From Cyanophora paradoxa CCMP329 (lineage: Eukaryota > Plantae > Glaucophyta), in assembly GCA_004431415.1 (NCBI GenBank), contig QPMI01000489.1, forward strand, positions 55,710 to 119,709: DNA of 64,000 bases, read 5' to 3'. Made by a program: the position numbers and the translations under genes. The notes beneath the pieces are model-generated. The model made no database searches and was not told the DNA's origin. It was given only the letters and a program-made list of their open reading frames with translations. Below are positions 21,780 to 54,316 of this stretch, in pieces. Numbering within the stretch: position 1 is the stretch's first letter; every line of letters begins with the position of its first letter.

Positions 21780-23188
21780 CTAGATACGCCTGTGAACCAA
21801 CGAGTAGCAATCGCGAAAGACGGTGTACACCTCCGAAATACTCGGGGCTGCGCCTAGCGCCGCGAATGCAGCACCCTGCTGCGCCTGCCGCTCGACTGCA
21901 TCCTCAAATATGTCCTCCTTCCACGTGACGTATCTGCGCTTGCGATGTCCCAGCTGCCCGCCGTCCTCTTCGCTGAAAACGCGCCTCACTCCCATGTACT
22001 TTTCGAGCAGGTACTTGATCACTTGCCAGCACTGCTGCGAGAGCTTCTTTTGCTGTTCGGTCGTAGCATCCAAGCGAGGGCAACGCTCATCCAAACTCTG
22101 CAGTGCCGCATAGGCCTCCCGACCGTCTGCGGAGGCGAGCGCCTCGTAGGCCTCCTTCGACCAGAGGACGCGCCCCACCAGCTTGCCGTACCCCTTCCAA
22201 CCGAACAATTTCTTGAAAAGCGACACGATCTTAGAAACCTTTAGGCGCTCCGTCGAAGGCACGATCTCTTCAAGGGGCATGTCGTATTTCAGCACCAGGT
22301 GGATCGTCGCCTTCAGCGGAATCGAGTACATCGTGCTCCACATCCAAGAGACGTCATCCTCGGTCAGCTCGTCGGAACTCTTAACGAGAAATGCAGCGAC
22401 AGCTGCCCGAGTGAGCGACAGCAACTTAGCGGACTCGAGCTGCGCAAGAGATTCGCGGGATTTCCTCCACTCTTGGACGAGGTCGTTGAGCGCGGCTGGG
22501 CCGAGGACACCGGCGTTCAGCACGCTCTCGATCTCTCGCTTCTGCCTCGCCCGCTCTTGGGCAGGTGCATTCGATCCTTGGTCCTCCGTGATTAGCACAT
22601 TCATCCACGGGCAGGTAGAGAGGAGCCGAAGTCGAGCGGCGACAGCAAGGCGGCGGGTCGGCATGCCGGCTCGCCGAGTGCCGTGGTGAATTGCTTTCAG
22701 ATCCAGAAAGCGCTGCGCGTCTGCATCGTCGCTCCCGTCACTCTCGTGCCAGTGCCCGATTGCCTTCTGCACCTGCACTTGCGGTGTACGATTCTTGCGG
22801 ACGGCAACGAGCAGGTGCTCCCCCCCTGGCGGATCGCCCTGAAGCTGCTCGCGCAGAGCTCTCGCTCGAAACAGCAGCTGCACGATGTCTTCGGACTCCA
22901 GCTGTGCGGGCTCCACGTGGAAGATGCCGTAAATTTTGTCGAAGTGCGCTTCGGGAAAATCAACGCCTGCCCCGAGCGCAGATGTAGCGATCAGCACGTC
23001 GCAAGCTTTATACGCTCCCTCTTCCGATAGATCGACGGGTGAGATGCGAACGGGCCCCTCCTTGATGAAGCGACAGCTCTTCTCCTTCGCCTGACCGACG
23101 ATCAAGCCAATCACGAAGGGTGAGGCAGACTCGTCGGCCCAATCGCGTGCCGATTCCTGCGCTTGCCTTGCTAGGCTCTCTGCAATCT
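21780..23188 (-). pseudogene. C-terminal piece of the interrupted UL9/origin-binding-protein-like SF2 helicase
   Basis: DVLIATSALGAGVDF..HFD..DIVQLLFRARAL (SF2 motifs V/VI of UL9 type). Joins the middle piece in frame (PAKAM-EIAES) once element A and one TSD copy are removed. Confidence 0.85.
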
Positions 23189-23193
23189 CCATT

Positions 23194-23598
23194 AGCTCAG
23201 CACTGCGCCGTGTCTCCAAAAAAATACCCGCGAAAAAAATCAAAAACAAATCAGAAAACAAACCATTCCCAGTAACCCAATCTTGAATATCAGTAAATCT
23301 CAGTAAGCCTCAGTAACCAAAATTGAATTAATCGAAGTTATATCATAATCTCGATTAATTATATCTTATCGAAGTTATATCTTTTTTATGCGCCGTGTCT
23401 CCAAAACAATTCCCAAGAAAAACAAACCATTCCCAGTAACCCTATTCGTATTCAACAGTAATCTCAGTAAGCCTCAGTAACAAAAATCGAATTAATCGAA
23501 GTTATATCTTAAATCTTATTTATCGAAGTTATATCATAATCTCGATTAATTATATTTAATCGAAGTTATATCCTTTTCATCCGCCGTGTCTCCCATGA
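23194..23598 (+). repeat. Left TIR of element A
   Basis: Reverse complement of 34331-34734 with local mismatches; internal ~185-bp repeat units and 5 copies of ATCGAAGTTATATC. Confidence 0.93.
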
Positions 23599-23599
23599 T

Positions 23600-24661
23600 T
23601 TAGCGTTTCGTTAAACCACTTCTCAAATTGTATCTCCTCCGAATTACATTACTCCGATTGGGTTTTATGCCTTCTTTTGCTACCAATCGATTCACTTTAT
23701 TCGTTTTATTAACCTGCTGAATCCGTTTTTGTGATGGTATCTTAATGATATCATCTTTATTCACCTTTTGCAATTCTTGTTTCTTAAATCTCCTCTTCAC
23801 TTCTTTTGTTTCCTCACCATCATTATCTTCAAGCACTTTGAAACGATTCCTATCAGCCTTTGCAACAGTGTAGACCTTCTGACTGAATTGCGCACCTTCT
23901 TTTTCAAACAATCCCTTTGGTTGCAAAACTCGAACTGTGTCTCCTGGTTTCACTTGATTAGTATCAGCCTCCTTTACACGATTGTTGTGAACAGTATCCC
24001 TCATGTAAATAAATAACTGTTTATCTTCATTTGTATACACTGCATTTGGAGAGTCATTTTTCAATGCAGAATGGGGACTGCTATTATACAAGTCAATTAC
24101 ATCACTAAGTAGATCGATCCATTTCGTGGTTCCCTTTGCTGTCATCGATTTTCTGAGATACTGTTTGAAAGTCCTAGTGAACCTATCAATTATCCCCAGT
24201 TTATCTCCTACTGTGATGTGGTCATCCTTTGCCACATCTGTGTATAGCATTACACCATGTTCACTGCACCAATTTCGGTATACTGCCTGGGAAAACTCAT
24301 TATCCCCAGAGAGAGCATTAACTTTGCCTGCTTCTTGCTTGAACCTATTTAAAATGCTCGGGATCTCACTGCTGTTTTTAAAAGGATAAACAAATCCTTT
24401 GCGACTAAGTATGTCTACGAAACTAAGCATTTTGAAAATGCCATTGTTGGCAGTCTGAAACCCTCTGAAATATGTTATATCGATTTGAAACGATCTAGGC
24501 TTTGCCACTATGCGAAGAAACGATTTGGGTTTCCTTGGTTTCTTGTAAATTTGCTGGAGTTCTGAGTTTTTGAACTTCTTTTTCAACTCTTTTTCATCAA
24601 AACTCACTTTTTCATTAATCAGTTTCTGCCTATACTTTTTGAATGATAATACACTATCCAT
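23600..24661 (-). CDS. Retroviral-type (rve) integrase, Polinton-like
   Basis: FQIDITYF, FVDILSRKGF, SGDNEF, GIIDRFTRTFK, YNSSPHSAL..SP, and an SH3-like C-terminus (GDTVRV..FEKEG). Confidence 0.93.
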   Translation of the reverse strand: MDSVLSFKKYRQKLINEKVSFDEKELKKKFKNSELQQIYKKPRKPKSFLRIVAKPRSFQIDITYFRGFQTANNGIFKMLSFVDILSRKGFVYPFKNSSEIPSILNRFKQEAGKVNALSGDNEFSQAVYRNWCSEHGVMLYTDVAKDDHITVGDKLGIIDRFTRTFKQYLRKSMTAKGTTKWIDLLSDVIDLYNSSPHSALKNDSPNAVYTNEDKQLFIYMRDTVHNNRVKEADTNQVKPGDTVRVLQPKGLFEKEGAQFSQKVYTVAKADRNRFKVLEDNDGEETKEVKRRFKKQELQKVNKDDIIKIPSQKRIQQVNKTNKVNRLVAKEGIKPNRSNVIRRRYNLRSGLTKR

Positions 24662-27600
24662 TATTGGGCGGCACAGTTACACTTAATATGAGAGAGGAAA
24701 CAATTTTTGGTAATGTGAGCCACAGCATTATTAATTCGATCTACCGAAATATCTTCAAAGTCCATGGCATTGTAGCATCGCAGGCAATGCCCATACTGCT
24801 TCCCATATCGCTGCTTGATCCAATCCCATGTGATGTAATCATGCTCATCGAATTGTCTGTTTGCTGCTCGGTCCTGATCCTTGTAAGTCGAAATCTTCTC
24901 GTTATTCTCTCTTTTCCACACTTTCCAGTGAGCCATTTCGAAATTATCATGGTAAATAACAACATCATCCAGCCTTGTGGTTCGAGTGAGAGCAACATAT
25001 AGCCACTTCTTTGAAACAAATGGCGCCCCAGTTTCGAACACGACTACCCTGTTCCCTTTGCAGCGAATCGTATCACCTTGAACAACATGGCAGGTGTTTG
25101 CGTAAGCCAGGGCGAAATGTTTGACTGCATCCCTGCTGAGAACAATCTCATCCTTCTTGTTGGCAATGTCAGCAATAATGAAACTGTCCTTTGAGAGCTT
25201 GACAATCTTGTAGACAAATCCATTATGAACTATCTTCCCACCCTTTGCAATACGAGTCTTTGCAACAACTTTGATCCCGCCAGCATAAATGGAAACATTA
25301 TCCCCGTAGTTCATTTTGTGAAGGGCTAGGTTCACCTCTGCACCCTTGCGGTTTGTATACACAATGCCTTTATCTGTCTTTGCCAATTCGTCCACAACCT
25401 TGAACCCGTACTTTGCTAGGACCTCACTTACACTCAAACCTTTCTCGAATAAATCAATTCGAATTTGCTCAACCTTTCTGCGATCTTCCTCAGTCTCATG
25501 GCGCTTGTTCACTTGGAGTAACAATTCGTTGGGGAACAGGCGATGGAGGATATCAAGGTAATACTCATCTTGATCAACACTCATATCCTGAATGGGTGGG
25601 TTCTGATACGGGTCACCTGTGGCAATGTATACCTTATCTGGGAACTGCTCATTCATGATGTGGTCCAGGGCTGCCAGTTCTCCAATCTTAAACTGACAGA
25701 TCTCATCAATAACAATGCAATCAAATTCTACCAAACCAGATGCATTCCCTCCTACGATTTCATCCATGTTCGACTCATCGATTTTGAGATGAAGGGCATC
25801 ATAGATTGTCTTCACATTTTTCAATCCTTGCTCTTTCATTTCCTTCACTCGCTTGTTGGTCGGAACAATATAGAGGGGATTTTTGAAACGCTTCCCATAT
25901 TCAACTGTCATGTGAGTCTTTCCAACTCCTGGAACTGATCCGAGAAGAACCCATCGTTTTTGTGTAGCCAGCAAATCACAAATCGCGGTTGTGTCATACT
26001 CATCAACCACAGAGTGTTTGGTATAACTGTAGTTCTCGATTTTCACAAAGTCAGTCGCTCTCTCAAACTTTCCGTAACGAATTCGTTTTGCCTCGAGGTC
26101 TTTCTTCTCACCTGAAAACTTTTTAGAAAAATTGGGGCAGCATTTCACACTGAATTTTCCAATATTCTCAAAGGCATTGCGATCGAATGACACTGGGGCA
26201 ATGGGTTCATAAGCGATCCCATAAACACAATCGGTGTTCAAAGCGAGTGGTCGGATCTGCTGTTTAGCGAGTTCGACACACTTCTCATACATACACATCC
26301 TCATAATTGACAAGAGGGTAGTGTACAATGGCATGAAGCCATCAATGAGCTGCTTTTCTGCTACCTGATTGACATAGTAGATATGGGGTTCGGTCATCTC
26401 TTCCTCACACAGAACGAACTCTGTCTCCTCATAAGTGGCAAGAGTCTCACCAAAGAGGTAAATTTTAACCTCTCCTCCGTTCTGTTTTTGGAACTCGATT
26501 GCATCGTCTCTGTTGTGGAAAATGGTGGTTTTCACTCTGCTATTTCGTTGCTTTCCAGTTTGCCCAATCGCACTCACTAAGATCTGCTTCTTATCAACAG
26601 GATCGAGGTCGCTATCTAAGATTCGAGCAACTGTGTTGCCTGCAAGGTTGGGAATGAGTTTGTAAGGTCGCAGAACCGCTTTGATGGAGATGTCATCCTT
26701 GAAATCCTCGAAATGCTTTTTGAGAACCAAACCAGGAACGACATTGTACTTGGAATCAATGATCATCCTCTTGTATCTGTTGTAGGTGTTTGCTTCATAC
26801 TCCTTTCCGTTCTTGTCTTTGGCTTTGAAAAAGTATTTGTCGTCCAGTTTCACATAATAGAAGCTGTACTCCTCGATTTGCTCTGCAGCTGTGATTGTCA
26901 CACTCTTGAAGACATCGAACTTGCTGAGAACAGGAACGAATTTGATCATCAAGGCTACAATGTAAGGGTATGCTTTGCACATATCGAACTCGTAAATATC
27001 TGTGTTGTAGCGAATTTCATCAAAGGTTTCCTCATCCACATCAAAGAGACCACGAAGGGCAGTCTGCACTCCATTCTTGAATGCATTTATGGTTTGCTCA
27101 TTGTAAGTACTCTTGTTGGAAGTGTTGATTAGAGACCTATACATATCCAGATTTAGTTTCTCGAATTTATCTCTGTACTCAGCATTCTTGAAGCTAATCT
27201 CGAAAGCTGTTTCCACATCTGTATCGTTACCAGGTGGGGTCACGACAACATCCTTATCGTCAATAGTGAAACGAATATGGGTTGCCTTTCCGATTTGGGA
27301 GAACCCAGGTTGCACCTGATAATTATGCACCACAATGAACTCTCTGAGAAGTTCATCCAGTGAACCACCATAGCAGATTCGAATGCTCGATTGGTTCTTT
27401 GGATTGTCAGACCTGACAATTCTCAGAATGTCGTCTGGATTTGTGGCAAACTCCTTGAACCTTCTTTGCTTTATAATCTTGTAACGAGAACTGAGTGGAA
27501 CATTGGTATCTTTTGGCTTGGAGCCATTGAAGGACTGTGTGAGAGCCTTAATATTGTGATTTAACAAATACATGTGACCATTCTCAATCTTCACATATGC

Positions 27601-28749
27601 AACAGAAGGGGTCAAGTGTGTGTTTCTGGTCTTGGGCAGGAAAGTCAGTTCAGGGACAGGGGTCCTGTCGTCCTTTCCAATTGTAACCATGCCTAGGCGC
27701 AGTGGGTCAAGAACCTTCTCCGAAATGGACTTGAAAGAAATGCCCCAATCATCTCCTTCAACAGGGTCTCGCCCATTCACCATCTTAAAGAGTCCGTTAT
27801 AAGACCAATCGATGCGCTTGTATTTCCCTTTGGTCTTAGCCTTCTCAAATGCTCCTCCAAACCATTTGATGAGGACATCGAAAACACACTTCCCAACCTT
27901 GAATGAGTCTCCTTTCAAGAACATTTCCTTGAATGTGGTGGCTTGGGGGTTCCCTTCGTTTTTAATGAAATTCGAAATAATCATTGGAGCGTTTGTATTG
28001 TCTCTGAGGACTTGTTCATTTCTTGGGATGTATTCTTCATTATCTGTGGTGATGACTCTTTCGATTGTCATAATATCGGGGTAGGTATCTTGCTCGATTA
28101 GTTTTAGGTAGCGGAAATCTTGATTGGTCGAGTTAAACTCGATGACTGCTGCAATAAATTCAGCAATGACAGTTCCCTCTACACATGGGAACGTATTGAA
28201 GGTGGATTGAACCAGACCGAGAGCGTTCAGAAAAGCTGCCTTGGTACACTGGATACCAAAGGGGCGATTGTTCCGAAGCCTCTTCGATTCTATATAGGTC
28301 ACACCATTCTCAGTGACCCTGTTTGCATTTGCAGGGGTCTGTTCTCCCTCTTGCAACTCACGGAAGAGTCTCACATTCAGAGTGACCATGTTTCCAGGTG
28401 AGTTTTCAACAAACTCACGAAGGTTAGCCATCATCTGCTGGAAAGGAGTCAAGCGCTTCCGCTCCTTTGCTTCGGCTGCTTTCTTGTTCTGCTTCTCAAC
28501 ATTCTTAGCGGCTCTCTCAGCCCTCTTCTCCTTCTTCTCTTGCTTGCGATACAAACGAGGCTCTACGATACCTCTCAGTGTATCTCTGATATCAATCAAC
28601 TTTGGAATTCTAATTGCTTTGAAAGTAAATTCTCTCAAGAAATAGATATCCTGCTCTCGGGTCAATTTGTCTTCTACTTTTGCTTGCATGTAGTAACCAA
28701 GAATCTCATCCTGTAAATTCTTCGAAATTCGATTACTTGGTCGAGGCAT
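24661..28749 (-). CDS. Multidomain replication protein: divergent family-B polymerase + SF1 (RecD/Pif1-like) helicase + C-terminal His-Me/HNH-like finger
   Basis: Pol motifs YEFDMCKAYP, KQILVSAIGQTGK, LNTDCVY. Helicase motifs GSVPGVGKT, IVIDEICQ, TGDPYQNPPI, YANTCHVVQGDT, LYVALTRTT. C-terminus CLRC..SVDRINN..H..NC..CN. Confidence 0.85.
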   Translation of the reverse strand: MPRPSNRISKNLQDEILGYYMQAKVEDKLTREQDIYFLREFTFKAIRIPKLIDIRDTLRGIVEPRLYRKQEKKEKRAERAAKNVEKQNKKAAEAKERKRLTPFQQMMANLREFVENSPGNMVTLNVRLFRELQEGEQTPANANRVTENGVTYIESKRLRNNRPFGIQCTKAAFLNALGLVQSTFNTFPCVEGTVIAEFIAAVIEFNSTNQDFRYLKLIEQDTYPDIMTIERVITTDNEEYIPRNEQVLRDNTNAPMIISNFIKNEGNPQATTFKEMFLKGDSFKVGKCVFDVLIKWFGGAFEKAKTKGKYKRIDWSYNGLFKMVNGRDPVEGDDWGISFKSISEKVLDPLRLGMVTIGKDDRTPVPELTFLPKTRNTHLTPSVAYVKIENGHMYLLNHNIKALTQSFNGSKPKDTNVPLSSRYKIIKQRRFKEFATNPDDILRIVRSDNPKNQSSIRICYGGSLDELLREFIVVHNYQVQPGFSQIGKATHIRFTIDDKDVVVTPPGNDTDVETAFEISFKNAEYRDKFEKLNLDMYRSLINTSNKSTYNEQTINAFKNGVQTALRGLFDVDEETFDEIRYNTDIYEFDMCKAYPYIVALMIKFVPVLSKFDVFKSVTITAAEQIEEYSFYYVKLDDKYFFKAKDKNGKEYEANTYNRYKRMIIDSKYNVVPGLVLKKHFEDFKDDISIKAVLRPYKLIPNLAGNTVARILDSDLDPVDKKQILVSAIGQTGKQRNSRVKTTIFHNRDDAIEFQKQNGGEVKIYLFGETLATYEETEFVLCEEEMTEPHIYYVNQVAEKQLIDGFMPLYTTLLSIMRMCMYEKCVELAKQQIRPLALNTDCVYGIAYEPIAPVSFDRNAFENIGKFSVKCCPNFSKKFSGEKKDLEAKRIRYGKFERATDFVKIENYSYTKHSVVDEYDTTAICDLLATQKRWVLLGSVPGVGKTHMTVEYGKRFKNPLYIVPTNKRVKEMKEQGLKNVKTIYDALHLKIDESNMDEIVGGNASGLVEFDCIVIDEICQFKIGELAALDHIMNEQFPDKVYIATGDPYQNPPIQDMSVDQDEYYLDILHRLFPNELLLQVNKRHETEEDRRKVEQIRIDLFEKGLSVSEVLAKYGFKVVDELAKTDKGIVYTNRKGAEVNLALHKMNYGDNVSIYAGGIKVVAKTRIAKGGKIVHNGFVYKIVKLSKDSFIIADIANKKDEIVLSRDAVKHFALAYANTCHVVQGDTIRCKGNRVVVFETGAPFVSKKWLYVALTRTTRLDDVVIYHDNFEMAHWKVWKRENNEKISTYKDQDRAANRQFDEHDYITWDWIKQRYGKQYGHCLRCYNAMDFEDISVDRINNAVAHITKNCFLSHIKCNCAAQ

Positions 28750-28990
28750 TTCTTTGTTCACTCTATTAATATATACCTACAAAAGTTTTCTTTAAATACT
28801 TTTATACTCGCGTCAAATTTTACCGGCAAAACCAAAAGTCTCCAACAAAATATATTTAGTCGAGGGCATTCATAAAAATAACGAAGGGTTGGCTCGATCA
28901 GCGAACTCTAAAAATAACAGAATGATTTTATTTGTGGTTCCAGCGCGGTTCCCACGGGTTTCTCAGAGCAGATCGCGCTGAGAAAAACGA

Positions 28991-29248
28991 TTAACAGAGA
29001 TATTTCGATTTGCGACCACGGTTAGAATACGGGACACCATAGAGATACTTCACAAAGCAGACTGCATTGGAAGCATAGAGACGCTGGGAACTCTCAACGA
29101 TTCTCATGGCTCTGTAACACTCATCAGTATGGTATAAATCACGCATTTGCTTTGCGAATTTCGCATTATACTTTTTTAAATATTCCTGACCTTTTTCACT
29201 TTTACGATAACGATAAGTAGCACGCTTCTGAGCCTCACTGATTGGCAT
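28991..29248 (-). CDS. Small basic protein, possibly DNA-binding
   Basis: MPISEAQKRATYRYRKSEKG.. with the same upstream motif as the replication gene. Confidence 0.6.
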   Translation of the reverse strand: MPISEAQKRATYRYRKSEKGQEYLKKYNAKFAKQMRDLYHTDECYRAMRIVESSQRLYASNAVCFVKYLYGVPYSNRGRKSKYLC

Positions 29249-29597
29249 GTTGTCCTTTTCTACTCTCTTAATATATGTTAAGAAATCTTTAAGTAGTTTT
29301 TCTGTCTGTATATAGCGAATAAACTCCTGTCAAATTTTGGTCCCGATTGCAGAGCATCCAGTACGAAAGAAGATGCTGGAAAAATGATAAAGCCACCGAT
29401 ACCCAGAAGGTTCACTTGTCGGCTGCAAGTTTCTACCACTGAACCCGGTAGAACAGGTGATTAAAGTGATTTACCTATGGATATTTCACTTCGCTCTACA
29501 ACGCCTCCATAAAAATGAAGAAGTTTTGAGCCTACGGGATAGGATTGGTTACGTAGCGCTAACAATGTTTGAGAAATTATATTATTCAGATTGATCC

Positions 29598-30359
29598 TTA
29601 ACGGCGATAACCGGGTCTTATACCAAGCTTGGCGAATCCAGAGACCATAGGGGCAGCATTTGGAATCGAGTTGACTGGATCAGCCTGCGAAGTGGCAACC
29701 CGAAGGATCGATTTATTGAGGACCGGCAAATCCGTTTTGTTGGAGTCTTGGTAATCGATTGTCTTCGCAATCAATTCGGTTGGTGATTCTTTTACGACTT
29801 GAACAGGTTCGGGAATAACTTCATGGGTTACTTCTGGTTTCTTCTCAACCTTTTCCTTTGTGATTGGCTGTTCCTTGATCTTGTTTTCGTTTTTGGTCTC
29901 TGCTGCAATACCATCAACAAGACTCTTAGCATACTGATATGTTACAGATTTCAGTCCACCAGTGGTTGAACGAATAAAGTAGCGGTTGCGATGGTCTTTC
30001 TCGGAATAGGTTGAGTAGAGTCGCTCACCACCATCAAGCAGTTTCAGCAGTGTCGATGATGAGGCAACCTTGTCCTTTGTGGATGATTTGAACTGTCCTT
30101 TCTTGATTCCTCGTTTGGCTCCGGGCATGCGGTTCAGTGGGACTTGGTCAACAAGGGCATTATCATCATTACTGTTTTTCGTAGTGGCTTGGGTGAATTG
30201 GTTTCGTTCTTTATGGACTTCCTTTTCGAGGTCACCAGTTCCGTATGCAGCGAGTCCTTTCGATTTCTTATACCAGTTCCTTCCATTCTCACCATTGCCA
30301 ACATCCGCTTCAGCGGCTGGTTTGGCTAAGAAATTCTTGGGTTGAGTCTTGCGAGCCAT
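29598..30359 (-). CDS. Hypothetical Lys-rich protein (possible core protein)
   Basis: 253-aa intact ORF directly downstream of the penton gene; no family recognised. Confidence 0.6.
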   Translation of the reverse strand: MARKTQPKNFLAKPAAEADVGNGENGRNWYKKSKGLAAYGTGDLEKEVHKERNQFTQATTKNSNDDNALVDQVPLNRMPGAKRGIKKGQFKSSTKDKVASSSTLLKLLDGGERLYSTYSEKDHRNRYFIRSTTGGLKSVTYQYAKSLVDGIAAETKNENKIKEQPITKEKVEKKPEVTHEVIPEPVQVVKESPTELIAKTIDYQDSNKTDLPVLNKSILRVATSQADPVNSIPNAAPMVSGFAKLGIRPGYRR

Positions 30360-30395
30360 TTGTAATATTGAAACAAATTTATTCTACAGTATTTC

Positions 30396-31283
30396 CTATG
30401 ACCGTGAGAACGGCAGGTAGAGTCCCTCCAACTCTTTTATGACATTCTTCAATGCTTTTTTCGTCAGATCTTTATCATCTTCAGTAATCAGTTCAAGAGT
30501 CATCGACCAGTCGGTAGTAATGTCTGCTGTGGCTCCATTCCAGTAAGAAAGTCTCACATCTAGAGTCTCAACCTCAACCAAGCCATTCTGCTCGTGAACG
30601 ATCATGGAATTATTCGATGAATCATATTTTAATAGACTGCCAACCGTTTGGTCAATCTCAATTTTCGCGATAGCATTGTTATCTCGTTTGTTATTGCTCA
30701 CATATCTTCCTTTCAGTGGATCAACATGAAGAAGCAAATAGGAATTAAATAGTAGATCTAATGGCATTTCACTATCAATGTAGTGAGCATAAGTAAAGGC
30801 TCCAACTGTGACATTAGATGATAGAGGACTCGATTGGTACAGTGTGTTAGCATTTTCAAAACCACAGAAATTGGCTAAGAGTTGAGTGTTCATAGTGATT
30901 GAGAATGGAACCTCACACATGAACCTTAGAAGCAATGTTGTGGGATCATAGGTTACATAGAAATGGCGAGTGTAAGTTCCGCCACCCGCTTGATTATAGG
31001 GCTGGGATCCAATGCGAGCGATCAGATAATTCACCAGTGAATCCGGTGTATATGCACCTCGGAGGACTTCGTTGTTTCTATTCTTTGGGTTCCCAGCATT
31101 ATCGAGTGTTTGTGTGGTGAGGGTTCCTACTTCAGAGAGGTTGTAAAGATTGTGAAACATCTCAAAGTTCGTTACTCGACAGGCTCTGACCTTTTGGATC
31201 GCATAAGGGAGTCTGTATGTGAAATTAGTTGGGGTTCCATCCGATCGGTCCCTGGAATCAATATTGAGATAGTAACGCGTCAT
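30396..31283 (-). CDS. Minor capsid (penton) protein
   Basis: YLNIDSRDR..TNFTYRLP..V....V..FE..HNLYN N-terminus and AIAKI..LDVRLSYWNG..DWSMTLEL C-terminus, typical of single jelly-roll pentons. Confidence 0.82.
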   Translation of the reverse strand: MTRYYLNIDSRDRSDGTPTNFTYRLPYAIQKVRACRVTNFEMFHNLYNLSEVGTLTTQTLDNAGNPKNRNNEVLRGAYTPDSLVNYLIARIGSQPYNQAGGGTYTRHFYVTYDPTTLLLRFMCEVPFSITMNTQLLANFCGFENANTLYQSSPLSSNVTVGAFTYAHYIDSEMPLDLLFNSYLLLHVDPLKGRYVSNNKRDNNAIAKIEIDQTVGSLLKYDSSNNSMIVHEQNGLVEVETLDVRLSYWNGATADITTDWSMTLELITEDDKDLTKKALKNVIKELEGLYLPFSRS

Positions 31284-31335
31284 TCTGTTTAATAAAGCAT
31301 TTTAAAAATTTCTTTTGGTATTTTAAACATAAGAG

Positions 31336-32543: not shown

Positions 32544-32640
32544 AAGTCTCGAACTTCTAAAGTTCTTTTCTTTTGTTAGTGTAGGAAGCGCAATTATTTG
32601 TAGGTGTGTACTTTATTTTGTTTTTTATCTTATTACTGTA

Positions 32641-33399: not shown

Positions 33400-33643
33400 A
33401 AGGACGATTTTTGAGAAATGTTGTATAATAAGGTAGCTTGAAATACTGTGGGGATTGCACAGTTGCGTAGAGCTTAAACAGCGCTTCAAACCGATATGCA
33501 GAACGTTGCGAGATCATAATCTGGTGATGAGATACAAGCGTTTGAAGATGCCGATAATCGATTTACCGAAACTTCGGTGAAACGTGAGCGAAACTTGAAC
33601 CGTGAGATCATATACCCTACTATGGTTTATTCCCCGGGTTTTC

Positions 33644-33890
33644 ATGGCGCATTTAATGGCGCATTTAATGGCGCATTTAATGGCGCATTTTATGGCGCAT
33701 TTTATGGCGCATTTTATGGCGCATTTGATGAAAAGTCCCTACTCTGTGGCATGAACCAATCAGAAGCCAGCAAATTTAAAATTAATATATGAGGTATTAT
33801 CTGAGATATAATCTGAGGTATTATCTGAGATATAATCTGAGGTATTATCTGAGGTATTATCTGAGGTATTATCTGAGATGTTATCTGTGA
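33644..33890. repeat. Two 12-bp tandem arrays (ATGGCGCATTTW x7; TGAGGTATTATC-like x8)
   Basis: Directly visible tandem repeats in the non-coding right arm of element A. Confidence 0.9.
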
Positions 33891-35827: not shown

Positions 35828-35833
35828 ACCAGC

Positions 35834-42203: not shown

Positions 42204-42308
42204 TTTTGATCTTTCCTTCCCTTTACTCTATGTATTTGCCTTTTCTTTAAGTAGTTTTCCTATGGAAAACGTCAGAAAAATGACATCAAATTTTGCCCGC
42301 GAGATTCC

Positions 42309-43757: not shown

Positions 43758-43790
43758 ATTTCGTTTTTATCTTCCGCTGAGAAATTTATT

Positions 43791-45077: not shown

Positions 45078-45104
45078 TTTATTCTTTATTAATAGGAAAT
45101 AAAA

Positions 45105-46078
45105 ATGATTCGGAAGCCAGTTAACGATTTCTATAATGGCAAGTTTACGAGGGTCAATGTTAATATCGATTCTATTGAGCGCAGTGCAGGGCACCCGGGA
45201 GAATATACAGTAAAGCTTTCTCAGCGACTTCTGAACGTAAAAGGGGTGCGCATTGCAAGCGCCGAGCTCCCAAACACGATTTATGCTGTCACCGATAATT
45301 CCAGAGGCGTGACCATACAGGGAATGACGAACAGCATCACCTTTTCCCCTTTCCCTGATATAGGAAACTACACCCCCGCGATTTGGGGATATGGTAATAA
45401 GAACTTAGGCTATTCGGGCAGCTTTGTAGATGTGGATCCTCTCACAAGCGAAAGCGTCACAGTCTACTACAAGTGGCTCTATAATCCAGCGACTATGAAA
45501 ATTACGTTTTATTCGAGCATTCCCCTCGCACTGAGCTGTGCACATGACGACTTTGCAAGGTTCCATGGAATGATCAAAGGGCAGATCTACCAAACAGCAG
45601 TCGCAGAAAAAGGAAGCCCTCATTATCAGGTCTCGTATGCTGATGTGACCCCATTCCACTTGCAGTATTCATTCTTGCAAGCATTCGAGGGTCGCTCAAT
45701 ATTCCCGCCTAATTTACCAATATCCGAGAAATTCCTATACAATGCAGTGACCTTCCCGAATGCGATTAATCTAAATCCGACCCCTATGTTTACCTACAAA
45801 TTAAAGAGTTTACTCCCTTTTACGACAGGTATATGGTGGCAGCAAAGACAGATGAGGGCGGAAATGCAAACCTCGCTAAGATCCCACTAACCAGCCCCTT
45901 GGGATCGTTTGTTTACTACCTGACATTCCGCAGAATCGATACTGTGGAGTTCTTTAATTCCCACGATCAGGCTTATGACATAGACACCCTCACAATTAAA
46001 TGGCTCGACGCCTACAATAATGTAGTCAACTTTAATGGCGTTAATCACAGCTTTATATTAGAGGTGCTATCGGGTTAA
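45105..46078 (+). CDS. Minor capsid (penton) protein 2; frameshift at ~45783 in a C-run
   Basis: VNIDSIERS..EYTVKL..NVKGVRIASAELPNT; after the shift LAKIPL..LTIKWLD..VNFNGVNHSFILEV. Confidence 0.78.
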
Positions 46079-46096
46079 AATAATCTTATATTACAA

Positions 46097-49000
46097 ATGA
46101 GTATCACGAATCTCCCCTTTATCACTCGGGAAACCTTGTATTTGGATGACGGTTTCGAGCTCAGCAGTAACATTACCGCTTCCAATGTGACCATATCTTC
46201 GAACCTTGTGGTAAAAGACTTTCTATTAAATCAGAGCAACCTTCAATATATTGATATCACCAGCAATCTCCCTTTTACCTATGGCACTGATAACTCAGCC
46301 CTCGTTATCTATCATGGGGGCTCGCCTGTTGCATTCTTTGGCAGCAATTTCCCCACAGTGCGAACCTTTCAGCACGAAATCAATAAAGCCCGCCCCATCC
46401 CACTGACAGCTGTCGTCGAATGGGATCCTGTTAAATATTCGCAGAGCATCACAAGCAATATCACACTCACTCGACCACATTTAATTGAGGTCATGGGGGT
46501 CGACCTTGTAAAGGAGTTTTATAGTGAGCGATTCACAAGAAACGAGCGAGATGTAGCCCAGGATCTCGAAATCTCGGGTTTATCAATTGCTACCGCAGCA
46601 AACACGGCAGGGCTCGCTGTTTTAACAGGTGCAATCACCATCACTGATGCGATCATGTATTTATCCCGCGATTTGGTGCCTTTGCTCGATCATCAGTTTA
46701 ATCTCGGGCAGTCTAACACTGATGCTGTTAAGAAATGGCTGAATGTGTATGCCTATGATGGGTGGTTTGATGACTTGCACACGACTAACCTTTATAGCAC
46801 GACCTCAAAAACAAGTAACATAATCTTGCCTTTCAATCACTCAGTCCGACCCAGTGATTTACCCACTGATGAGAGAGCTCTGATCAGCTATAACGACTTT
46901 AACAGCAATCTTTCCCGCTCAGTTTCGCGGACTGAGACCTACACTGTCGAGGGATACCCTCAGCAGCTCGCAAATGGGGTCTATGTCGCTTATGTAGGCA
47001 AACCTACATATACATTCACTTGGGATCAGTTGGGTGTCACAGGTTTGGAGAGTATACCCACTGTTTCATTGGTGGATCACACAACTTATTATAATCCTAT
47101 CACTAACAATAATGAATCTAATAAAGCGTTTATCCAAAATGTCACCTCCACAGGGTTTCAGGTCTCGTTTGTCATTAACGAGACATACAATTTACTTATC
47201 ATCCGAAACAACTCATTGAGTTCCGAAGCTACTATTAGTTTCACTCTCACCATCAATTACATTAGCCCTGTATTCGATAGCAAACCCAGAGTAAAGGTTT
47301 ACCGAGATTTACAAGGTAGCAATATCGTGCCCTTCTCACAGAATTTCGATCTTGGGGCGAATTCTTTAAGGTGGAACACAGTTTATACTTTGAGTGCAAA
47401 CACCTGTAATATTGTGGTCGCAGGATCATCGGCTACTATTGGAGAATTGACCGCCCCTTTTAGAAAGGAGTTTCTCAAAGAACTGTATATAACGAAGTCT
47501 GATTTACCAGATGCTATTTCGTTGGTGCTCTCCCCAACTCCCAGTATATCCTATCACAATGTGAAAGACACCAGTAATGTAGTGCAGAGGGGAAGCAAAG
47601 TATTCCAGGCATCCGAGATATCAGCAACAACATATAGATACCTTGCAGCGGTTCCAGCGAATTTTAATTTCACATTTGAGACACCATTTGTTTCCCCTCC
47701 TACTATTGAAATAACTGACACGAATTTGTATGTGGTAAATGATGGGTCAGCTACATCACTTCAAAATGCACCAGCCGGCTACTCTCCATTTGTCGCAACA
47801 AATATAACAACAACCGGCTTTACACTTGTCGGAAATGCAACAGTGACATATGCTCTGACAGCATATCCTGTTGGGTTGTATTTTGCGAAATTTAATCTTT
47901 CAGCGATCCCACCTGTGTCCCTTTCTCCTCCCTTTACTATAAGTTGGAAGGCAACAGGAACTATTCCGCGATTCGACCCCGAAGACCGCTTGAAAATTAG
48001 GTATCCTCTCGATGTGACCGACCTTCATACTACGAGAATCAATGGGCAGAATTTCGTATTTAATGGAACCAATGCAACTCTGATCGATAATCGAGTAACG
48101 AATAATTACTTTTTCGATTCTCGATATATTAATACTTGCAATATTGTCATACAGAACACGTTTGAGAATCGAAGTAAGACCTTATCAGTCACCTTGCCCA
48201 CTCACTCGAATGTCTCAGATGGATTTCACTATTATCTTTTCAATCGCAATTACACCTCATATATTCCATACCCTTCTGAGACTGTCAACATGAGCTATCC
48301 CAGAGTCACCCTTACATCGACCAATGCTGACTTCTTTGGATCCACGGACTTTATGACCTTCTTTGCTTTCACATCCTCTACTGATGGGCTCTTAGTTTAT
48401 TACACTTTCAAATCTGATACTGTTGCTACCCAGATTGAAAGCCACCCAAACACTGATATTATCACAGTAGGCGATAAGAAATATATAAAAACCGCTTCCC
48501 CATGGGTTTGCACTGTCCGGCTCGATGACAGATACACTCCTAACCTAAATAGCATTGGAATGCACTCGACATGCAATATTTATGTGCAAGGTGCAATTTC
48601 AGCTTCAAAGTACTTTGAGGGTGGGAACTGTGATGCAGCCCATAGGTTGCTATCGAGAAATGGACTCTTTGAGTCATTTAGTGGGACAGCTCTACCGCCA
48701 TTCATCAGGGACACAGTCTATGATACAACATGCAATATTTGGGTGTGCCGATCTGTGATCAATCCACCTGTAACACAGGAATTATACAGTTACCTCGCGA
48801 ATAAGTATGGGGCAATCACAGGGTCTTCAACAGGAAATCCAGCAACAGCTCCTATCGTGTTTGCAAATGCATACACAGCGCCAACCTCATTGGCAGGGTC
48901 GACAGAACCGCCACCAAACGATCCCAATCCGAACCAGCCTAACCCAGATCCCGATTCAAAAGATCCCCCTACAACTGATCCAGATCCAAACACGACACCT

Positions 49001-49420
49001 AATAATCCCACTAATCCTACAAATCCAGTCGGAGCACCCGGAATGGATCCAGGAACGTTAGTGCTTCTCATTCTCTTGCCGATTCTCGGTGCTCTTGGAC
49101 TTGTGCTTGCATACAAATTCCGAGCTTTATGTTGTGCTTGCATAGACAGAACCATTGCAGGTGCAGGTAATAAATACTCGGTGCCAGAAATGAATGTGAC
49201 CCAAACAGCCGAAGGAGATGTGGGGTTAGAGGTGAGGTCAGCCGAGGGGCATGGTCTTAGTGTTGTGAGAACTGATCAACCACCAGCAAGTAGGGCAGCA
49301 CCCAAAAAATCGCGAGCAGAACGAATGGCTGAATCAATAATAAAAGATAATGCAGACTTTATGGCGGAAATTGCACAACGAGAGGGCAGAACATACGAGC
49401 TTCTCCCAATGCGACCCTAA
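46097..49420 (+). CDS. Large fibre/spike-like protein with Pro/Asn stalk and C-terminal transmembrane helix
   Basis: Thr/Ser/Asn-rich; fibre-like repeats LVP..FNLG..KW..VY and IVP..FDLG..RWNTVY; PNDPNPNQPNPDP stalk; TLVLLILLPILGALGLVLAY. Confidence 0.7.
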   Translation: MSITNLPFITRETLYLDDGFELSSNITASNVTISSNLVVKDFLLNQSNLQYIDITSNLPFTYGTDNSALVIYHGGSPVAFFGSNFPTVRTFQHEINKARPIPLTAVVEWDPVKYSQSITSNITLTRPHLIEVMGVDLVKEFYSERFTRNERDVAQDLEISGLSIATAANTAGLAVLTGAITITDAIMYLSRDLVPLLDHQFNLGQSNTDAVKKWLNVYAYDGWFDDLHTTNLYSTTSKTSNIILPFNHSVRPSDLPTDERALISYNDFNSNLSRSVSRTETYTVEGYPQQLANGVYVAYVGKPTYTFTWDQLGVTGLESIPTVSLVDHTTYYNPITNNNESNKAFIQNVTSTGFQVSFVINETYNLLIIRNNSLSSEATISFTLTINYISPVFDSKPRVKVYRDLQGSNIVPFSQNFDLGANSLRWNTVYTLSANTCNIVVAGSSATIGELTAPFRKEFLKELYITKSDLPDAISLVLSPTPSISYHNVKDTSNVVQRGSKVFQASEISATTYRYLAAVPANFNFTFETPFVSPPTIEITDTNLYVVNDGSATSLQNAPAGYSPFVATNITTTGFTLVGNATVTYALTAYPVGLYFAKFNLSAIPPVSLSPPFTISWKATGTIPRFDPEDRLKIRYPLDVTDLHTTRINGQNFVFNGTNATLIDNRVTNNYFFDSRYINTCNIVIQNTFENRSKTLSVTLPTHSNVSDGFHYYLFNRNYTSYIPYPSETVNMSYPRVTLTSTNADFFGSTDFMTFFAFTSSTDGLLVYYTFKSDTVATQIESHPNTDIITVGDKKYIKTASPWVCTVRLDDRYTPNLNSIGMHSTCNIYVQGAISASKYFEGGNCDAAHRLLSRNGLFESFSGTALPPFIRDTVYDTTCNIWVCRSVINPPVTQELYSYLANKYGAITGSSTGNPATAPIVFANAYTAPTSLAGSTEPPPNDPNPNQPNPDPDSKDPPTTDPDPNTTPNNPTNPTNPVGAPGMDPGTLVLLILLPILGALGLVLAYKFRALCCACIDRTIAGAGNKYSVPEMNVTQTAEGDVGLEVRSAEGHGLSVVRTDQPPASRAAPKKSRAERMAESIIKDNADFMAEIAQREGRTYELLPMRP

Positions 49421-49449
49421 TTTTTGTAGTATGCCTTAATAGAGAAATA

Positions 49450-50912
49450 ATGACGGAACCCATAGTAGAAACGACAGTAAAGAATGCTGTATTGGATAAT
49501 CAATTTTATATAACCCATGGCAATATACCCAGTGAATCCAATGACCTAATTGTTAATCTAAAAGGCTATGTGATGGGAGCTATGGCTTCTAACCTATGGA
49601 ATGACCTTTTCGGTTACGAGTTTGGTCACATCTATGACATTGCAAATGGGATCGGCTATGTGGATGCAATGGCAGGCACAGCCTTTCGCAATTTAAATTG
49701 CAACTGTGTGGGTGGGTGGATGTTTCAGATCTGTTCAAATGTCGATCCTACTATTGATCCCGCCACTGTGACCTTTGATTGCAATCTGTATGCCCCAAAA
49801 CCATTTTTTCTATCACTTGCAATCTCGTTAATTCGGATGTGCCCATAGTAGCACCTGTAATAGGTGCATCAAATATGTATATCCAAAGAAATCCGGTCGT
49901 GCATACAGGCGCCGAATTTATATTAGGCGACAACACCCCAATTAGTCGACTCGAATTGCCCACGAATTTCACCTTTAATCTCGTGGATGAGTTCCCTAAC
50001 AGTCAAAGTCTCATGTATTTCACCTCTGAAAATCGCCTTTCGGGTGCATTCTCGCCCATCGAGCTCTCTATACCGAAGCAAAAGGTGAGCTATAAAGAGC
50101 TTACAGATGTGCCGGCGGGTTTTAGTGGGAAGTGGAGTGATATCATTCAGAAGCCGACTTGGAGTAGTGTAGCATACACAGGAAATTACTATGATTTAGT
50201 AGGAACTCCCGATTTCACAAGCTATATACCTCGTTGGATCGATCAAGGTGTAATTATATCAGAATCTACACTCCCTTTCAATGGGACATGGGATAGGTTA
50301 TTTACTAAGCCGAATTTGCATGCTGTTGCCACAAGTGGTGACTACAACGATTTAACTAACACCCCCAATGCACCGACCTTGCATGCTGTGGCTACAAGTG
50401 GGAGCTATACAGATTTAGTTAATACACCTAACCTCCACGCTGTGGCTACAAGTGGAAATTATGATGATCTGATTAACACACCTACTTCGCCACCCACTCA
50501 CAATCACAGCATAGAGTTGCTCACGAATTTCGGTAGTTATGTGAATCCAAATGCATATGTGCAACAAGGGACAGCGAATGTAGTTTTGGAAAATAGAATA
50601 TACAATGCAGGAGAGACCTTTCAGTTATCGGGAACGGTCGTATTCTCTACCCCATTTTATAGTGATGCAGTGATTACTACCTCTATCGAGAATAGCTACA
50701 ACTCTGTTAATTGGGAAATGACCAACTGTGTGTATATCGGACCTGAGTATGTTAATAATGAGAGAGTAGGACTAAAAACTAAGTTTACATGGATCGTTAG
50801 ATTCACAGCTTTCGCATCGACTAATTTCACAAATGTCACAGCAGCAAATCGCACCCTTAAACTCCATTGGATTGCTGTCGGACCTCTCCAAAACAATAAT
50901 ATTCTCACATAA
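49450..50912 (+). CDS. Tail-fibre-like protein; frameshift at ~49795
   Basis: Repeats LHAVATSG(D/S/N)Y.DL.NTP typical of phage-type fibre shafts. Confidence 0.7.
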
Positions 50913-50933
50913 TAAGTAAAGAACAATCAAAAG

Positions 50934-51934
50934 ATGTCGACTGTATTCACACCTGTGTTTTCCTTATCAGCCAGTGCTGTCCATAATGTGCAACACACAG
51001 TCTATGATTTATCTCCGAGCCACCCTTCGACTGAGACAGCGAAAACCGATTCTTTTAATGACCAAAGCATACTCAGAGTCAAAGAACTCAGAGCTGACAA
51101 GATTGATGGACTCGTTAAAGCTACTCAAATGATCGTATCGAATCGACCCGCAATCTCTTCGGGGCTGGTCACCAAAGAAAATCTATATGAAGGTCAACAG
51201 GATTCCAAAACGGCTTTTAATCCGGCTGATAGGAATTCGGCGGCTTTCCAAGTTTACAGTGGCGGGGCATGGATTGGGACTGGATTGGGAGTGAATGGGA
51301 ATGCGACAATTACAGGAAGCCTTACAGCTGGATCATTTGAAACAGTTAAAACGACGACTATTGATTCTGGGGCGAACACAGAATTAGTAATTAAGCGAAA
51401 CAATGAGAATATCGCTTCCACATTTGTAAACAGCTTCACCAATTCAACAAGTGGGGCAGTTGCTGGAACTTACAGCTGGAAAGGTCTTACAGTCAATGGG
51501 ACAAACTCTTATCTTGGGACTCCAAACCATCCTCGATTTTGCTATGGATTAAATACAACAGTAACATCAGCTGCAATTATCAACGCATGGGGCATATCAT
51601 TTTAGGATCAACATCATTTTCGAATGGAGTATTCACAGCACCCATAGGAGGACATTACAGGTTCGTTTTCACAGCAATGACATCAAGATATGATACAGGA
51701 AACACACATGTTATTTTACAAGTAAATGGTGCAGATACAGCAGTGAATGCATTAGTAGGTGTTGTAACTAATGCAGATGAATATAGAAGATATCGCTGTC
51801 TCGGTTTCAACACTATTCAATCACTTAGTGCAGGTGATAGTGTGCGACTCAGATTAGCATTGGGTAGTCAGCTTTATGGTGATGCAAGCACTGCATTTTG
51901 TCAATGGTCAGGTGAATTAATTTCGGCAATATAA
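50934..51934 (+). CDS. Fibre protein with C-terminal gC1q-like head; frameshift at ~51537
   Basis: FSNGVFTAPIGGHYRF..LQVNG..LSAGDSVRL..WSGELI matches the C1q globular-domain pattern. Confidence 0.72.
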
Positions 51935-51942
51935 GTAAAAGA

Positions 51943-52206
51943 ATGTCGAACATCTACCAAGTGGTTCTAACTGATACTGAAAAACTCGGAATGGAATACT
52001 GTGCCTACTCTGTTCAGGATTGGATCGATAATGCTGCTCATAATAGGGCGAGAATCGCGATTGATGAGATTGTGGACAAAGAAGTTAAATCGTGTATTGC
52101 TGCTGGAATTCCGATTCCACTCACAAAGGAAGCGATTGTAGAGCAAGCGTTTAATCGGGGGACTGTTCGAAAGGCAAGCGAAATTCCTGTGAGTGCTCCT
52201 ATGTAA
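51943..52206 (+). CDS. Small phage-type protein of the kind found after C1q fibre genes (possible assembly chaperone)
   Basis: LTDTEK..MEY.A..VQDWIDNA.HNRARIAIDEIV..IP.TKEAIV; recognised from memory of phage proteins. Confidence 0.6.
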   Translation: MSNIYQVVLTDTEKLGMEYCAYSVQDWIDNAAHNRARIAIDEIVDKEVKSCIAAGIPIPLTKEAIVEQAFNRGTVRKASEIPVSAPM

Positions 52207-52253
52207 AGAGAGATGGGTTTATTGTTATTTTTCATAGATCATGCATAAGAAAG

Positions 52254-53719
52254 GCATGTATCTTGCATAGTGGGCGGGGCGCACTTATCCCCTTCGTATC
52301 CACTTCGTATCCACTTCATATCCACTTTGTGTTCACTAAATTATATCGCACTGATTCAGTTTGCATTTTGCCCCCACCCTACACCCCACCCTATACTACA
52401 ATCTCGTTATTTCTATACATATTTACTATCTAATTTAATAGAGTTTATACATTGAAATAAGTGAGGTGTATCGATAAGTAATACAGGGTGGGGAGGGTGG
52501 GGTTGGGTGGGGTCTTTTTTGCCCAAAAATATTTGACCCCCAAAAATTTAAGGGATTCAAAAAAATGCCCCACCTCACCCCACTTACCCCACCCTATCGA
52601 AGTCCGCACGATATCATAGTAGGCTACATCGGGATTGCGATCATATCACAGTGTATACAGTGAGGGTGGTGCCCCACTTTCTCACCCCACCCTATCGATT
52701 CGCGATTCAGGGATCGCGAAATATACAGCACATGATACTTGTTTTTCTTAGTGATCGCGCCGTTCTAATACGATCTGAATATATCATATCTCGTCGGTAT
52801 CACGTCGGTTCAATATCGTAATTATTAAATGGTTGGCTGATACCACTTTCACACCCCACCCTCACACCCCACCCGGTATTAATTTAACATACATAATCTC
52901 TATACTTTATACATTAATTACATTGAAATCAATCATAAATATAATAAAAGATACAGGGTGGGGTAAGTGGGGTTGGGTGGGGTCTTTTTTGACCAAGAAT
53001 TTTTGAGGGGGAATTATTTTAGGGAATTCAAAAAAATGCCCCACCTCACCCCACCCGCCCCACCCTATCGAAGTTATCGAAGTCCGATAAGTATCAAACC
53101 GGAAGTAAAAATAACACATCATGATTTTATGTGTGCCATCTTAGATTGGACTACCATACCGATACCACTCACACCCCACCCTCACACCCCACCCAGTATT
53201 AATTTAACATACTCAATCATACATATTTATATTTAAATTACAGTGAAATCAATCATAGATAAAGAGAATAATACAGGGTGGGGTAAGTGGGGTTGGGTGG
53301 GGTCTTTTTTGACCAAGAATTTTTGGGAGTGAAACATTTTAGGGAATTCAAAAAAATGCCCCACCTCACCCCACCCGCCCCACCCTATCGAAGCTACGTA
53401 GGTGATACACATGACTATATGAGGCGCGTCCCAAGCAGCACATTGTAGTTGTTTTAGATACACATCGCGCATCGTAAACACATATCGGCTATATCGCGAT
53501 TACATATTATATATACATATTTTACAAAGATTCCACGATACTTATATTATTTTTATTGATTCATTTACGAACTACCGATAGAATACATATCACATATCGA
53601 TATACACTATGATAAAAATGCTAATATCTTTATATAACTTATAGTAACACACATATAAAAACAAATATTATTATCCTGAGCGGAACGCGAGGGATAATAA
53701 TATTTGTTTTTATATGTGT
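52254..53719 (-). repeat. Right TIR of element B
   Basis: Inverted copy of 35834-37298; terminal hairpin at 53649-53719. Confidence 0.95.
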
Positions 53720-54316
53720 ACCAGCTCGCCATAGCTCATCTCGCACCAGCTTGTTCTCGTGCAAAAGATCAAGGAATCGTTTGAAAATGGCGCTCGAGCT
53801 CGAAACTGAGCTAGCTGCAGCTACAGCATCCGCCGCGGGATTCGAGTTCCAAGCCGAGGTGCAAGTGTCCGTCGCAAGATCATGAGCGCCGCCGTCCGGA
53901 ATCGACCGAAGAGCCGCCGCGCCAGTGCCGCTATCGAATTGAAGCTCGAGCGCTCCAGATGAGCCGAGAACCCAGGCTGCAAAGGCACAGACCTCTTGGT
54001 TTTGAACGACGTAAGCAACTCGCAGCTGCGGGCTATTCGACACAGGCCGAGAGAACGTGAGGCCTCCGTATTTATCCACGTACGCGCGAGCAGCCGCACA
54101 GCTCGTCTCGTCGCCGGCTCCCGAAAAGCAGCTGGGTGTAATTCCAGGCGGGTGGGCAATGCATACGACGGCGCCCAGCACCGGGCTCCAGCTCTTGGTA
54201 ACAGAGACGAGAGGGAAGCGAAGCAAGAAGGTGGCCTCTTCGTCGCTAAAGCTGATGGTCTGAACACCTGGAAGGCGCGAGAGGAGCTCGTCGCTGCACA
54301 CGCTGGCCGGCGCCAT
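53720..54316 (-). pseudogene. N-terminal piece (199 codons) of the interrupted UL9-like helicase
   Basis: Starts at ATG 54316; ELWRAG joins QALRISID at 35827 in frame across the ACCAGC TSD. Confidence 0.85.

Follow-up and report, generated by a model that had tools for sequence, protein, structure and literature searches.

Two Polinton-like viruses inserted in one UL9-like helicase gene of a virus-like element of Cyanophora paradoxa

Nested structure of the locus

In the glaucophyte alga Cyanophora paradoxa CCMP329, contig QPMI01000489.1 (assembly GCA_004431415.1) contains a locus at which two different Polinton-like viruses (PLVs), here called elements A and B, are inserted in a single UL9-like helicase gene belonging to a third, virus-like element. 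The window is the whole stretch analysed, 64,000 nucleotides at positions 55,710 to 119,709 of the forward strand, and all positions given below are counted from its first letter (Table 1). Its GC profile falls from about 60% to about 41–43% in two blocks with a short GC-rich island between them, and long inverted repeats form the borders of both AT-rich blocks. Element A (11,541 bp; 40.6% GC; ends AG..CT) has terminal inverted repeats (TIRs) of about 420 bp, in which 405 of 419 aligned bases are identical, and is flanked by the 5-bp target site duplication (TSD) CCATT at 23189–23193 and 34735–34739. Element B (17,886 bp; 43.4% GC; ends AC..GT) has TIRs of about 1,500 bp, identical at 1489 of 1495 bases, and the 6-bp TSD ACCAGC at 35828–35833 and 53720–53725. 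The pieces of the helicase gene left around these insertions measure 597, 1093 and 1409 nt, together 3099 nt; each of them, translated separately, is free of internal stops, and their phases add up. The double insertion is real. The original prediction had given the same coordinates, TSDs, ends and stop-free joined open reading frame (ORF), all of which hold, and it was right to regard A and B as different integrating viruses: the two integrases, both on the minus strand, are 26% identical, and the DNA of the two elements has only one 29-nt match in common.

The assignment of A to the PLVs is based on the TIRs and TSD together with a double jelly-roll major capsid protein (MCP), an A32-like ATPase, an rve integrase and a replicase. 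The double jelly-roll MCP was recognised by its near-identity, judged by eye, to gene_49165, for which HHpred gives 97% to an MCP (PMC10120064 Table S2). Element B is assigned through its own TIRs and TSD and through an MCP, an ATPase and an integrase that are homologous to those of A.

Empty sites, filled sites and sister copies

Empty forms of both insertion sites exist in nature. Contigs assembled from read runs were compared with the window over 19000–36600 in four runs (X1, X4 and X6, which are DNA, and X15, which by guess is RNA), and a second comparison covered 34670–35900 in the three DNA runs. All three DNA runs contain a joint that skips 11,546 nt, i.e., A plus one TSD, and this joint is crossed by an unbroken contig of X4. 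Because loose ends at 34733 and 35833 are identical, in 3/3 runs, to window positions 23157–23186 and 53726–53749, which are the continuations of an empty A site and an empty B site, respectively, both empty sites must be present. EukProt contains exact counterparts of 1 of 10 window proteins in one comparison and of 3 of 6 in another, and the named members of their clusters all come from Cyanophora paradoxa. The junctions are also bridged by gene models from other contigs. With N, M and C denoting the N-terminal, middle and C-terminal pieces, P0003 joins M to C, P0031 joins both N to M and M to C, P0083 joins N to M, and P0028 contains N, M and C in order. The uninterrupted alleles that the original prediction had proposed to look for in reads and at other loci were thus found in both.

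Confirmation of all four filled junctions had likewise been proposed, and short contigs support two of them. Contigs of X1 and X6 cross the right junction of A (34708–34762, 55 letters) and the left junction of B (35804–35861, 58 letters) with 27–30 letters per side, short of the 31-letter bridging rule, while the left junction of A and the right junction of B were not seen directly. The depth at the two junctions is 45 and 41 in X1, against 92 for the middle piece (45–49%), and 70 and 85 in X6, against 218 (32–39%); the similar depth of both junctions within each run is as expected for one haplotype. No filled-junction contig occurs among the 8 of 16 pieces listed for X4, one contig of which spans both sites unbroken; contigs lose rare variants. 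An estimate of copy number from contig depth was abandoned, as the candidates for single-copy depth conflict (115 in X4; 15–16 in X6, where the junctions have 70–85). In 3/3 runs a single contig covers the middle piece without any further break.

The genome contains at least four subtypes of the helicase, 43–80% identical over the middle piece. Among 23 further gene models of the helicase, 14, on 11 contigs, read through the position of A, and three reach across the B site, the remaining 20 ending short of it. None of the 23 includes PLV-derived sequence. Between the interrupted gene and the read contigs, 2 of 1,101 and 14–15 of 1,545 positions are different; P0002 and P0004 depart from the gene by 3–4 residues, and it has no stop or frameshift. 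Such slight decay is consistent with recent insertions and agrees with the original prediction, which had drawn the same conclusion from the undecayed ORF. What is observed are the two insertions, their empty sites, sister copies that are intact and further sites of insertion, and this evidence is compatible with either order of A and B. TIR identity (97% in A and 99.6% in B) was rejected as an insertion clock.

Gene content of the interrupted element and of the two insertions

The match of the middle piece to PF02399 spans positions 43–162 only of the 820-position profile; P0028 matches the same family (E value 3.7e-5). The motifs of the C-terminal piece are those that we take to mark the second half of the motor. 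Pfam searches yielded no origin-binding C-terminal domain in the C-terminal piece and neither a match nor an N-terminal primase domain in the N-terminal piece, P0031 or the N-terminus of P0028. A phmmer search of 1.84 billion representatives returned four matches, i.e., three host paralogues and one unrelated repeat protein, which was dropped; a PDB profile search gave nothing below an E value of 0.38; and no relatives were found in the viral or metagenome contigs searched. The AlphaFold model (pLDDT 42) was uninformative, and the leaning of Foldseek towards viral origin-binding helicases, at TM-scores of about 0.1, was not used. The gene had been described as a UL9-type, origin-binding SF2 helicase. 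The UL9-like SF2 (superfamily 2) motor is upheld by PF02399, while origin binding is suggested by the repeat array that adjoins the gene and not by homology.

This array lies 237 bp upstream of the helicase start and consists of two opposed blocks of TGTTACAC. It holds 10 of the 12 matches in the window, the whole of which would be expected to contain 0.88; the two others are isolated, one in A and one in B. The array is likely an iteron-type replication origin. Downstream of the gene, a loose end in the read contigs shows that other copies part from the window at 21489, inside the first palindromic site, and P0066, from a contig that bears another helicase subtype, is 99% identical to its counterpart in the window, a neighbour of the helicase gene. 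Because four helicase subtypes occur on a near-identical backbone and the divergence sets in inside the first palindrome, the helicase, which the three 49-bp palindromes bracket, and the array beside it are likely to form a swappable origin-plus-initiator cassette. This cassette is perhaps more original than the double insertion itself. With four subtypes between palindromic sites beside an array, it would make origin binding by a UL9-like protein from outside the herpesviruses directly testable.

Table 1. Features of the locus (positions in the window; a point marks features without strand)
Feature	Position	Strand	Evidence or remark
TSD of A (CCATT), left copy	23189..23193	+	
Element A, PLV, 11,541 bp	23194..34734		TIRs 23194–23615 and 34308–34734; empty site in 3/3 DNA runs
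TSD of B (ACCAGC), left copy	35828..35833	+	
Element B, PLV, 17,886 bp	35834..53719		TIRs 35834–37333 and 52221–53719; empty site in 3/3 runs
Helicase, C-terminal piece (presumed second motor half and C-terminal region)	21780..23188	-	Stop-free; 99% identical to P0002–P0004
Helicase, middle piece, SF2 motifs I–III, with right TSD of A (34735–34739)	34735..35827	-	PF02399, E value 3.8e-13
Helicase, N-terminal piece, with right TSD of B (53720–53725)	53720..54316	-	Stop-free; matches P0028, P0031 and P0083
Imperfect palindromic site 1, 49 bp, downstream of helicase gene	21480..21528	.	z -6.9
Imperfect palindromic site 2, 49 bp	21622..21670	.	z -6.2
Imperfect palindromic site 3, 49 bp, upstream of helicase, inverted relative to sites 1 and 2	54409..54457	.	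z -6.0
Phased repeat array	54553..54853	.	TGTTACAC six times at 21–22 bp spacing, then four inverted copies
A, rve-type integrase	23600..24661	-	Weak rve matches below cut-off; PF00665 in 4 of 22 homologues
A, 1362-aa replicase, PolB-like motifs followed by SF1 helicase	24661..28749	-	AAA_19, E value 1.7e-7; UvrD_C_2
A, probable minor capsid protein (from position)	30396..31283	-	Weak likeness to two B genes, E values 2e-5 and 6e-8
A, MCP, frameshifted near 31461 in the window	31336..32543	+	
A, ORF with A32-like packaging ATPase	32176..33399	+	PF04665, E value 3.4e-15, residues 167–322
B, rve-type integrase	38520..39962	-	rve, E value 0.014, below cut-off; 26% to A integrase, E value 2e-19
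B, A32-like ATPase, truncated at 14-bp tandem repeat in window copy	40771..41205	-	PF04665, E value 2.3e-5
B, zinc-finger repeat protein, probable endonuclease	41253..42203	-	DUF4379, E value 8.7e-13; DUF2726 weak
B, MCP, by homology to A MCP	42309..43757	-	BLAST E value 1.5e-10, 26%
B, probable fibre genes (H-lectin-like, C1q-like)	46097..51934	+	Weak Pfam matches below cut-off
YqaJ-like PD-(D/E)XK nuclease	20823..21479	+	PF09588, E value 6e-28
HNH-AP2 endonuclease	56689..57318	-	PF13392, E value 4e-6
Conserved gene of third element	62611..63198	+	22-member cluster, 12 of 14 compared at 98%; no Pfam match
DUF5767 gene, runs off window	63253..64000	-	PF19071, E value 2e-13; 22-member cluster and further host copies

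In element A, the PolB-like motifs of the replicase were read by eye only. A search with the integrase found 22 relatives at 26–46% identity, none of them in the host annotation, and therefore adjacency of gene numbers in that annotation cannot reveal PLV insertions. The window copy of A has frameshifts in the capsid gene (31461) and at the boundary of capsid and ATPase (32538), which are either assembly error or decay. Contigs of X15 cover the integrase, capsid and ATPase of A (23650–24724 and 30740–33674) as well as the YqaJ gene (20761–21559); they can show neither expression level nor strand.

The ATPase of B shares 42% identity with that of A over 110 aa (BLAST E value 4e-24). No polymerase or helicase was found in B, either among its ORFs with Pfam or in stop-free frames of at least 90 aa. 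A replicase of their own is usual in PLVs and is lacking in some groups, such as VC40 (10.64898/2026.06.19.733378). Both ends of B form 71-nt hairpins (35834–35904 and 53649–53719) with a perfect 28-bp stem (z -13.5), and it is possible that B is replicated by host or helper enzymes through hairpin priming. The AlphaFold model of the B MCP (pLDDT 31) was uninformative. The window copy is damaged in the ATPase gene, where the truncation occurs at the 14-bp tandem repeat (40838–40880), and in a capsid-like gene (45770–45890), again by assembly error or decay.

The third element encodes, besides the helicase, the nucleases and the two cluster genes of Table 1 and several further genes without assigned function. 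As two of its genes belong to 22-member clusters and its gene order, followed by gene numbers, is the same on other contigs, it is, judged by its genes, a multicopy element with nucleocytovirus-type genes. The repeated, virus-like element that had been called a third endogenous virus is thereby supported; that it is a virus would be a reading of its gene content. The product of the gene at 62611..63198 is possibly SSB-like. No relatives of this gene, of DUF5767 or of the B MCP were found in the viral or metagenome contigs searched. Relatives of the DUF5767 gene with 56–75% identity (P0071, P0076 and P0077) were found on short contigs of other public assemblies, so that the third element has relatives outside the host annotation.

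Neither end of the third element was found within the window. In the gene-poor stretch at 13001–19000 the density of six-base palindromes is 66 per kb, compared with about 15 in viral genes, and this stretch may contain the left border of the element. Most read contigs of X1 and X4 skip 90 nt that are present in the window at 19174–19265. On the right side, 127-nt inverted repeats lie on either side of a tandem-rich spacer of 199 nt, and part of a third copy is present (59962–60433 and 61180–61338), each with a 15-bp unit three times; this is possibly a small insertion or a regulatory repeat. The first 13,000 nt of the window (1–13000) carry intron-rich host genes, one of them of the prolyl oligopeptidase family (PF02897).

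Origin of the double insertion and comparison with known systems

The number of PLVs in this genome sets the scale on which two insertions in one gene can be judged. In Cyanophora paradoxa, 366 PLV MCP hits in two clusters have been listed for 99.9 Mb (PMC10120064 Tables S1, S2, S4), and 156 glaucophyte elements, 85 with an rve integrase, have been tallied (PMC12220804 Table S6). If 183–366 elements were placed uniformly, 0.4–1.6 pairs within 1,093 bp would be expected genome-wide, and pure chance, with the pair merely noticed afterwards, would explain such a pair somewhere. Inside third-element DNA, for which 30 copies of 35 kb were assumed, uniform insertion would yield only 0.004–0.017 close pairs, and we regard pure chance as a poor explanation. 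When insertions are limited to a tenth of the genome, the expectation for close pairs inside third-element DNA becomes 0.4–1.7, and that for double insertions in any of 20 helicase copies rises from 0.0003–0.0014 to 0.03–0.13. The data are best fitted by a moderate regional enrichment, which is assumed and would suffice, uniform chance being strained (P about 0.001 for the helicase family).

We therefore favour, as the more probable account, a pile-up of two unrelated PLVs with rve integrases in silent, dispensable viral DNA, not aimed at the helicase gene. Each integrase would make a staggered cut of 5 or 6 bp without choice of sequence. The first insertion would have disrupted a viral gene that was redundant, without harm to the alga, and the second would have landed, neutrally, in a gene already broken. 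The enrichment could come either from a preference of the integrases for such chromatin or from the loss of cells with insertions in host genes. A sink of silent DNA is plausible, since viral genes are methylated and silent in Cyanophora paradoxa (PMC12344493), and the integration of Mavirus-like rve elements is not sequence-specific (PMC8547959).

Several observations weigh against this account. The uniform expectation for the helicase copies makes regional enrichment a requirement, and enrichment has no direct support in the other flanks: none of five clean foreign flanks of A or B matches the 15 kb of the third element that the window covers (the 15 loose-end rows listed, of 19, also included six empty sites, two duplicates and two mixed consensus sequences). 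In Cafeteria, 15 of the resolved integration sites lie in predicted host genes and not in silent DNA (PMC8547959). The depth of the filled junctions could mean one copy or several, depth being no copy number. Just one of the 14 read-through models, P0003, shares the subtype of the window, and gene models can splice out an insertion. P0002 and P0004, which are of the same subtype and come from other contigs, start at the Met formed by the TSD at the A site. Such starts can be gene-model artefacts, because the start of P0091 is a Met that lies three residues beyond the corresponding A position while P0089 and P0092, isoforms of the same gene, read through.

These starts would also suit gene-specific targeting, in which the integrases of PLVs are drawn to a replication-initiator gene or origin and silence the resident virus, as the original prediction had suggested. 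Two independent insertions in 3.1 kb, unlikely if insertion is uniform, and the putative origin 0.8 kb from the B site point the same way, and the junction depth could exceed one copy. The claim was not borne out. The target sites of A and B have no common motif and the other flanks are varied; the position of A is read through by the majority of sister models, none with PLV sequence; intact alleles occur in 3/3 runs; and a knock-out gains nothing from a second insertion. Disruption of the helicase by both viruses, also claimed, applies to the first insertion, whereas the second entered a broken gene. We regard targeting as improbable, about as much so as uniform chance if slightly less; a preference for the virus as a whole, and not for the gene, may exist.

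A preference of that kind would arise if A and B were satellites of the third virus that integrated anywhere in its genome during co-replication, in the manner of hitch-hiking provirophages. In as much of the third element as is visible, the 3.1-kb helicase is the longest gene and so the largest target, and B, without its own replicase and with hairpin ends, would borrow that of helper or host. Sputnik 2 can insert almost anywhere in the genome of its helper (PMC6723459). An A-type MCP is reported at 8.4–9.4 kb on tig00020936 (PMC10120064), which also has the third-element genes g16183 and g16192, although with 366 MCP hits such sharing of a contig is expected. The X15 contigs over the YqaJ gene and the A genes also suit this account, yet they are silent on expression levels. 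None of the five flanks matches the third element as far as the window shows it, and the repeat array is absent from A and B. On balance we consider hitch-hiking unlikely, though not negligible. Slightly less likely still, in our view, is a three-tier system in which a resident, multicopy small nucleocytovirus-like virus with swappable origin-plus-helicase cassettes is preferred by PLV satellites, one of them lacking a replicase, that ride or disable it. An assembly chimera of repeated elements is very improbable. It would accommodate the direct crossing of only two junctions, the lack of filled-junction contigs among the X4 pieces listed and the frameshifts of A and B in the window, and X1 is possibly the source of the assembly; the exact TSDs on both elements, the helicase pieces in phase and the contigs across filled junctions, present in two runs that date from different years, argue against it.

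The locus provides a clean, natural nesting of viruses within a virus, in an alga that can be cultured and that has both sites in the empty as well as the filled state, and should be useful for measuring PLV integration sites. If a preference for the third virus were demonstrated, PLVs of unknown replication strategy would gain a named helper or victim, and in a three-tier system the hyperparasitised virus would be a small endogenous one and not a giant virus, which is testable in the cultured alga. No literature on this locus or on targeting of a UL9-like gene by PLVs was found in a search outside which lay figures, bioRxiv supplements and part of PMC10120064 Table S5.

The third element is possibly mriyavirus-like. 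Some mriyaviruses, a subset of the Yaraviridae, have UL9-like SF2 helicases (10.1101/2024.02.29.582850), and mriyavirus-related regions are reported to be embedded in a glaucophyte assembly (10.1101/2025.04.19.649669). With the SF2_hel group of the Mriyaviricetes it shares compactness, a UL9-like SF2 helicase and a PD-(D/E)XK nuclease; the mriyavirus nuclease has, however, been called non-orthologous to YqaJ (10.1101/2024.02.29.582850), while that of the third element is YqaJ-like. Membership is marked by a nucleocytovirus-like MCP with ATPase, VLTF2/3, an HUH endonuclease, an intact AEP primase N-terminal to the SF2 helicase and a genome of 35–45 kb. Unlike in the Mriyaviricetes, the part of the third element within the window contains no capsid, ATPase, VLTF2/3 or HUH gene, nor was an N-terminal primase domain detected by Pfam. 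Repeat-bracketed replication modules, in which replicase genes lie within their own repeats and are swapped between genomes, resemble the cassette described here; those modules comprise pPolB, PolA or AEP of PLVs, whereas here a UL9-like helicase and an array belong to a non-PLV element (10.64898/2026.10.13.758929). That source also describes tandem integration of small eukaryotic DNA viruses, with EVE_QPMI01_83 as one example.

The endogenous PLVs already described from Cyanophora paradoxa are a close comparison for A and B, as they come from the same host, include an MCP nearly identical by eye to that of A and, in one case, a PTR/H-lectin fibre; in contrast to the present locus, the passages and table rows consulted describe no insertion sites and no nesting in another virus (PMC10120064, PMC12220804). 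The EMALEs of Cafeteria burkhardae resemble A and B in their rve integrase, short TSDs, low GC, insertion in coding sequence and lack of sequence specificity, but are virophages with a virophage capsid and are themselves nested by Ngaro retrotransposons (PMC8547959). Sputnik 2 is likewise a small virus that resides in another viral genome, that of Lentille virus; its integration, at about any position, was shown in a replicating giant virus (PMC6723459), whereas a dependence of A or B on the third virus would be hypothetical. Nesting of PLVs in other viral elements is already described in Halocafeteria seosinensis, where five PLVs and nine virophages with TIRs and TSDs lie inside other viral elements and nesting is frequent, and where palindromic ends, comparable to the hairpins of B, are proposed to prime replication in some subtypes (10.64898/2026.07.28.741278). 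The hosts of nesting in Halocafeteria are PLVs, virophages and transposons; in Cyanophora paradoxa the host is a GC-rich element with nucleocytovirus-type genes, one gene of which was struck twice.

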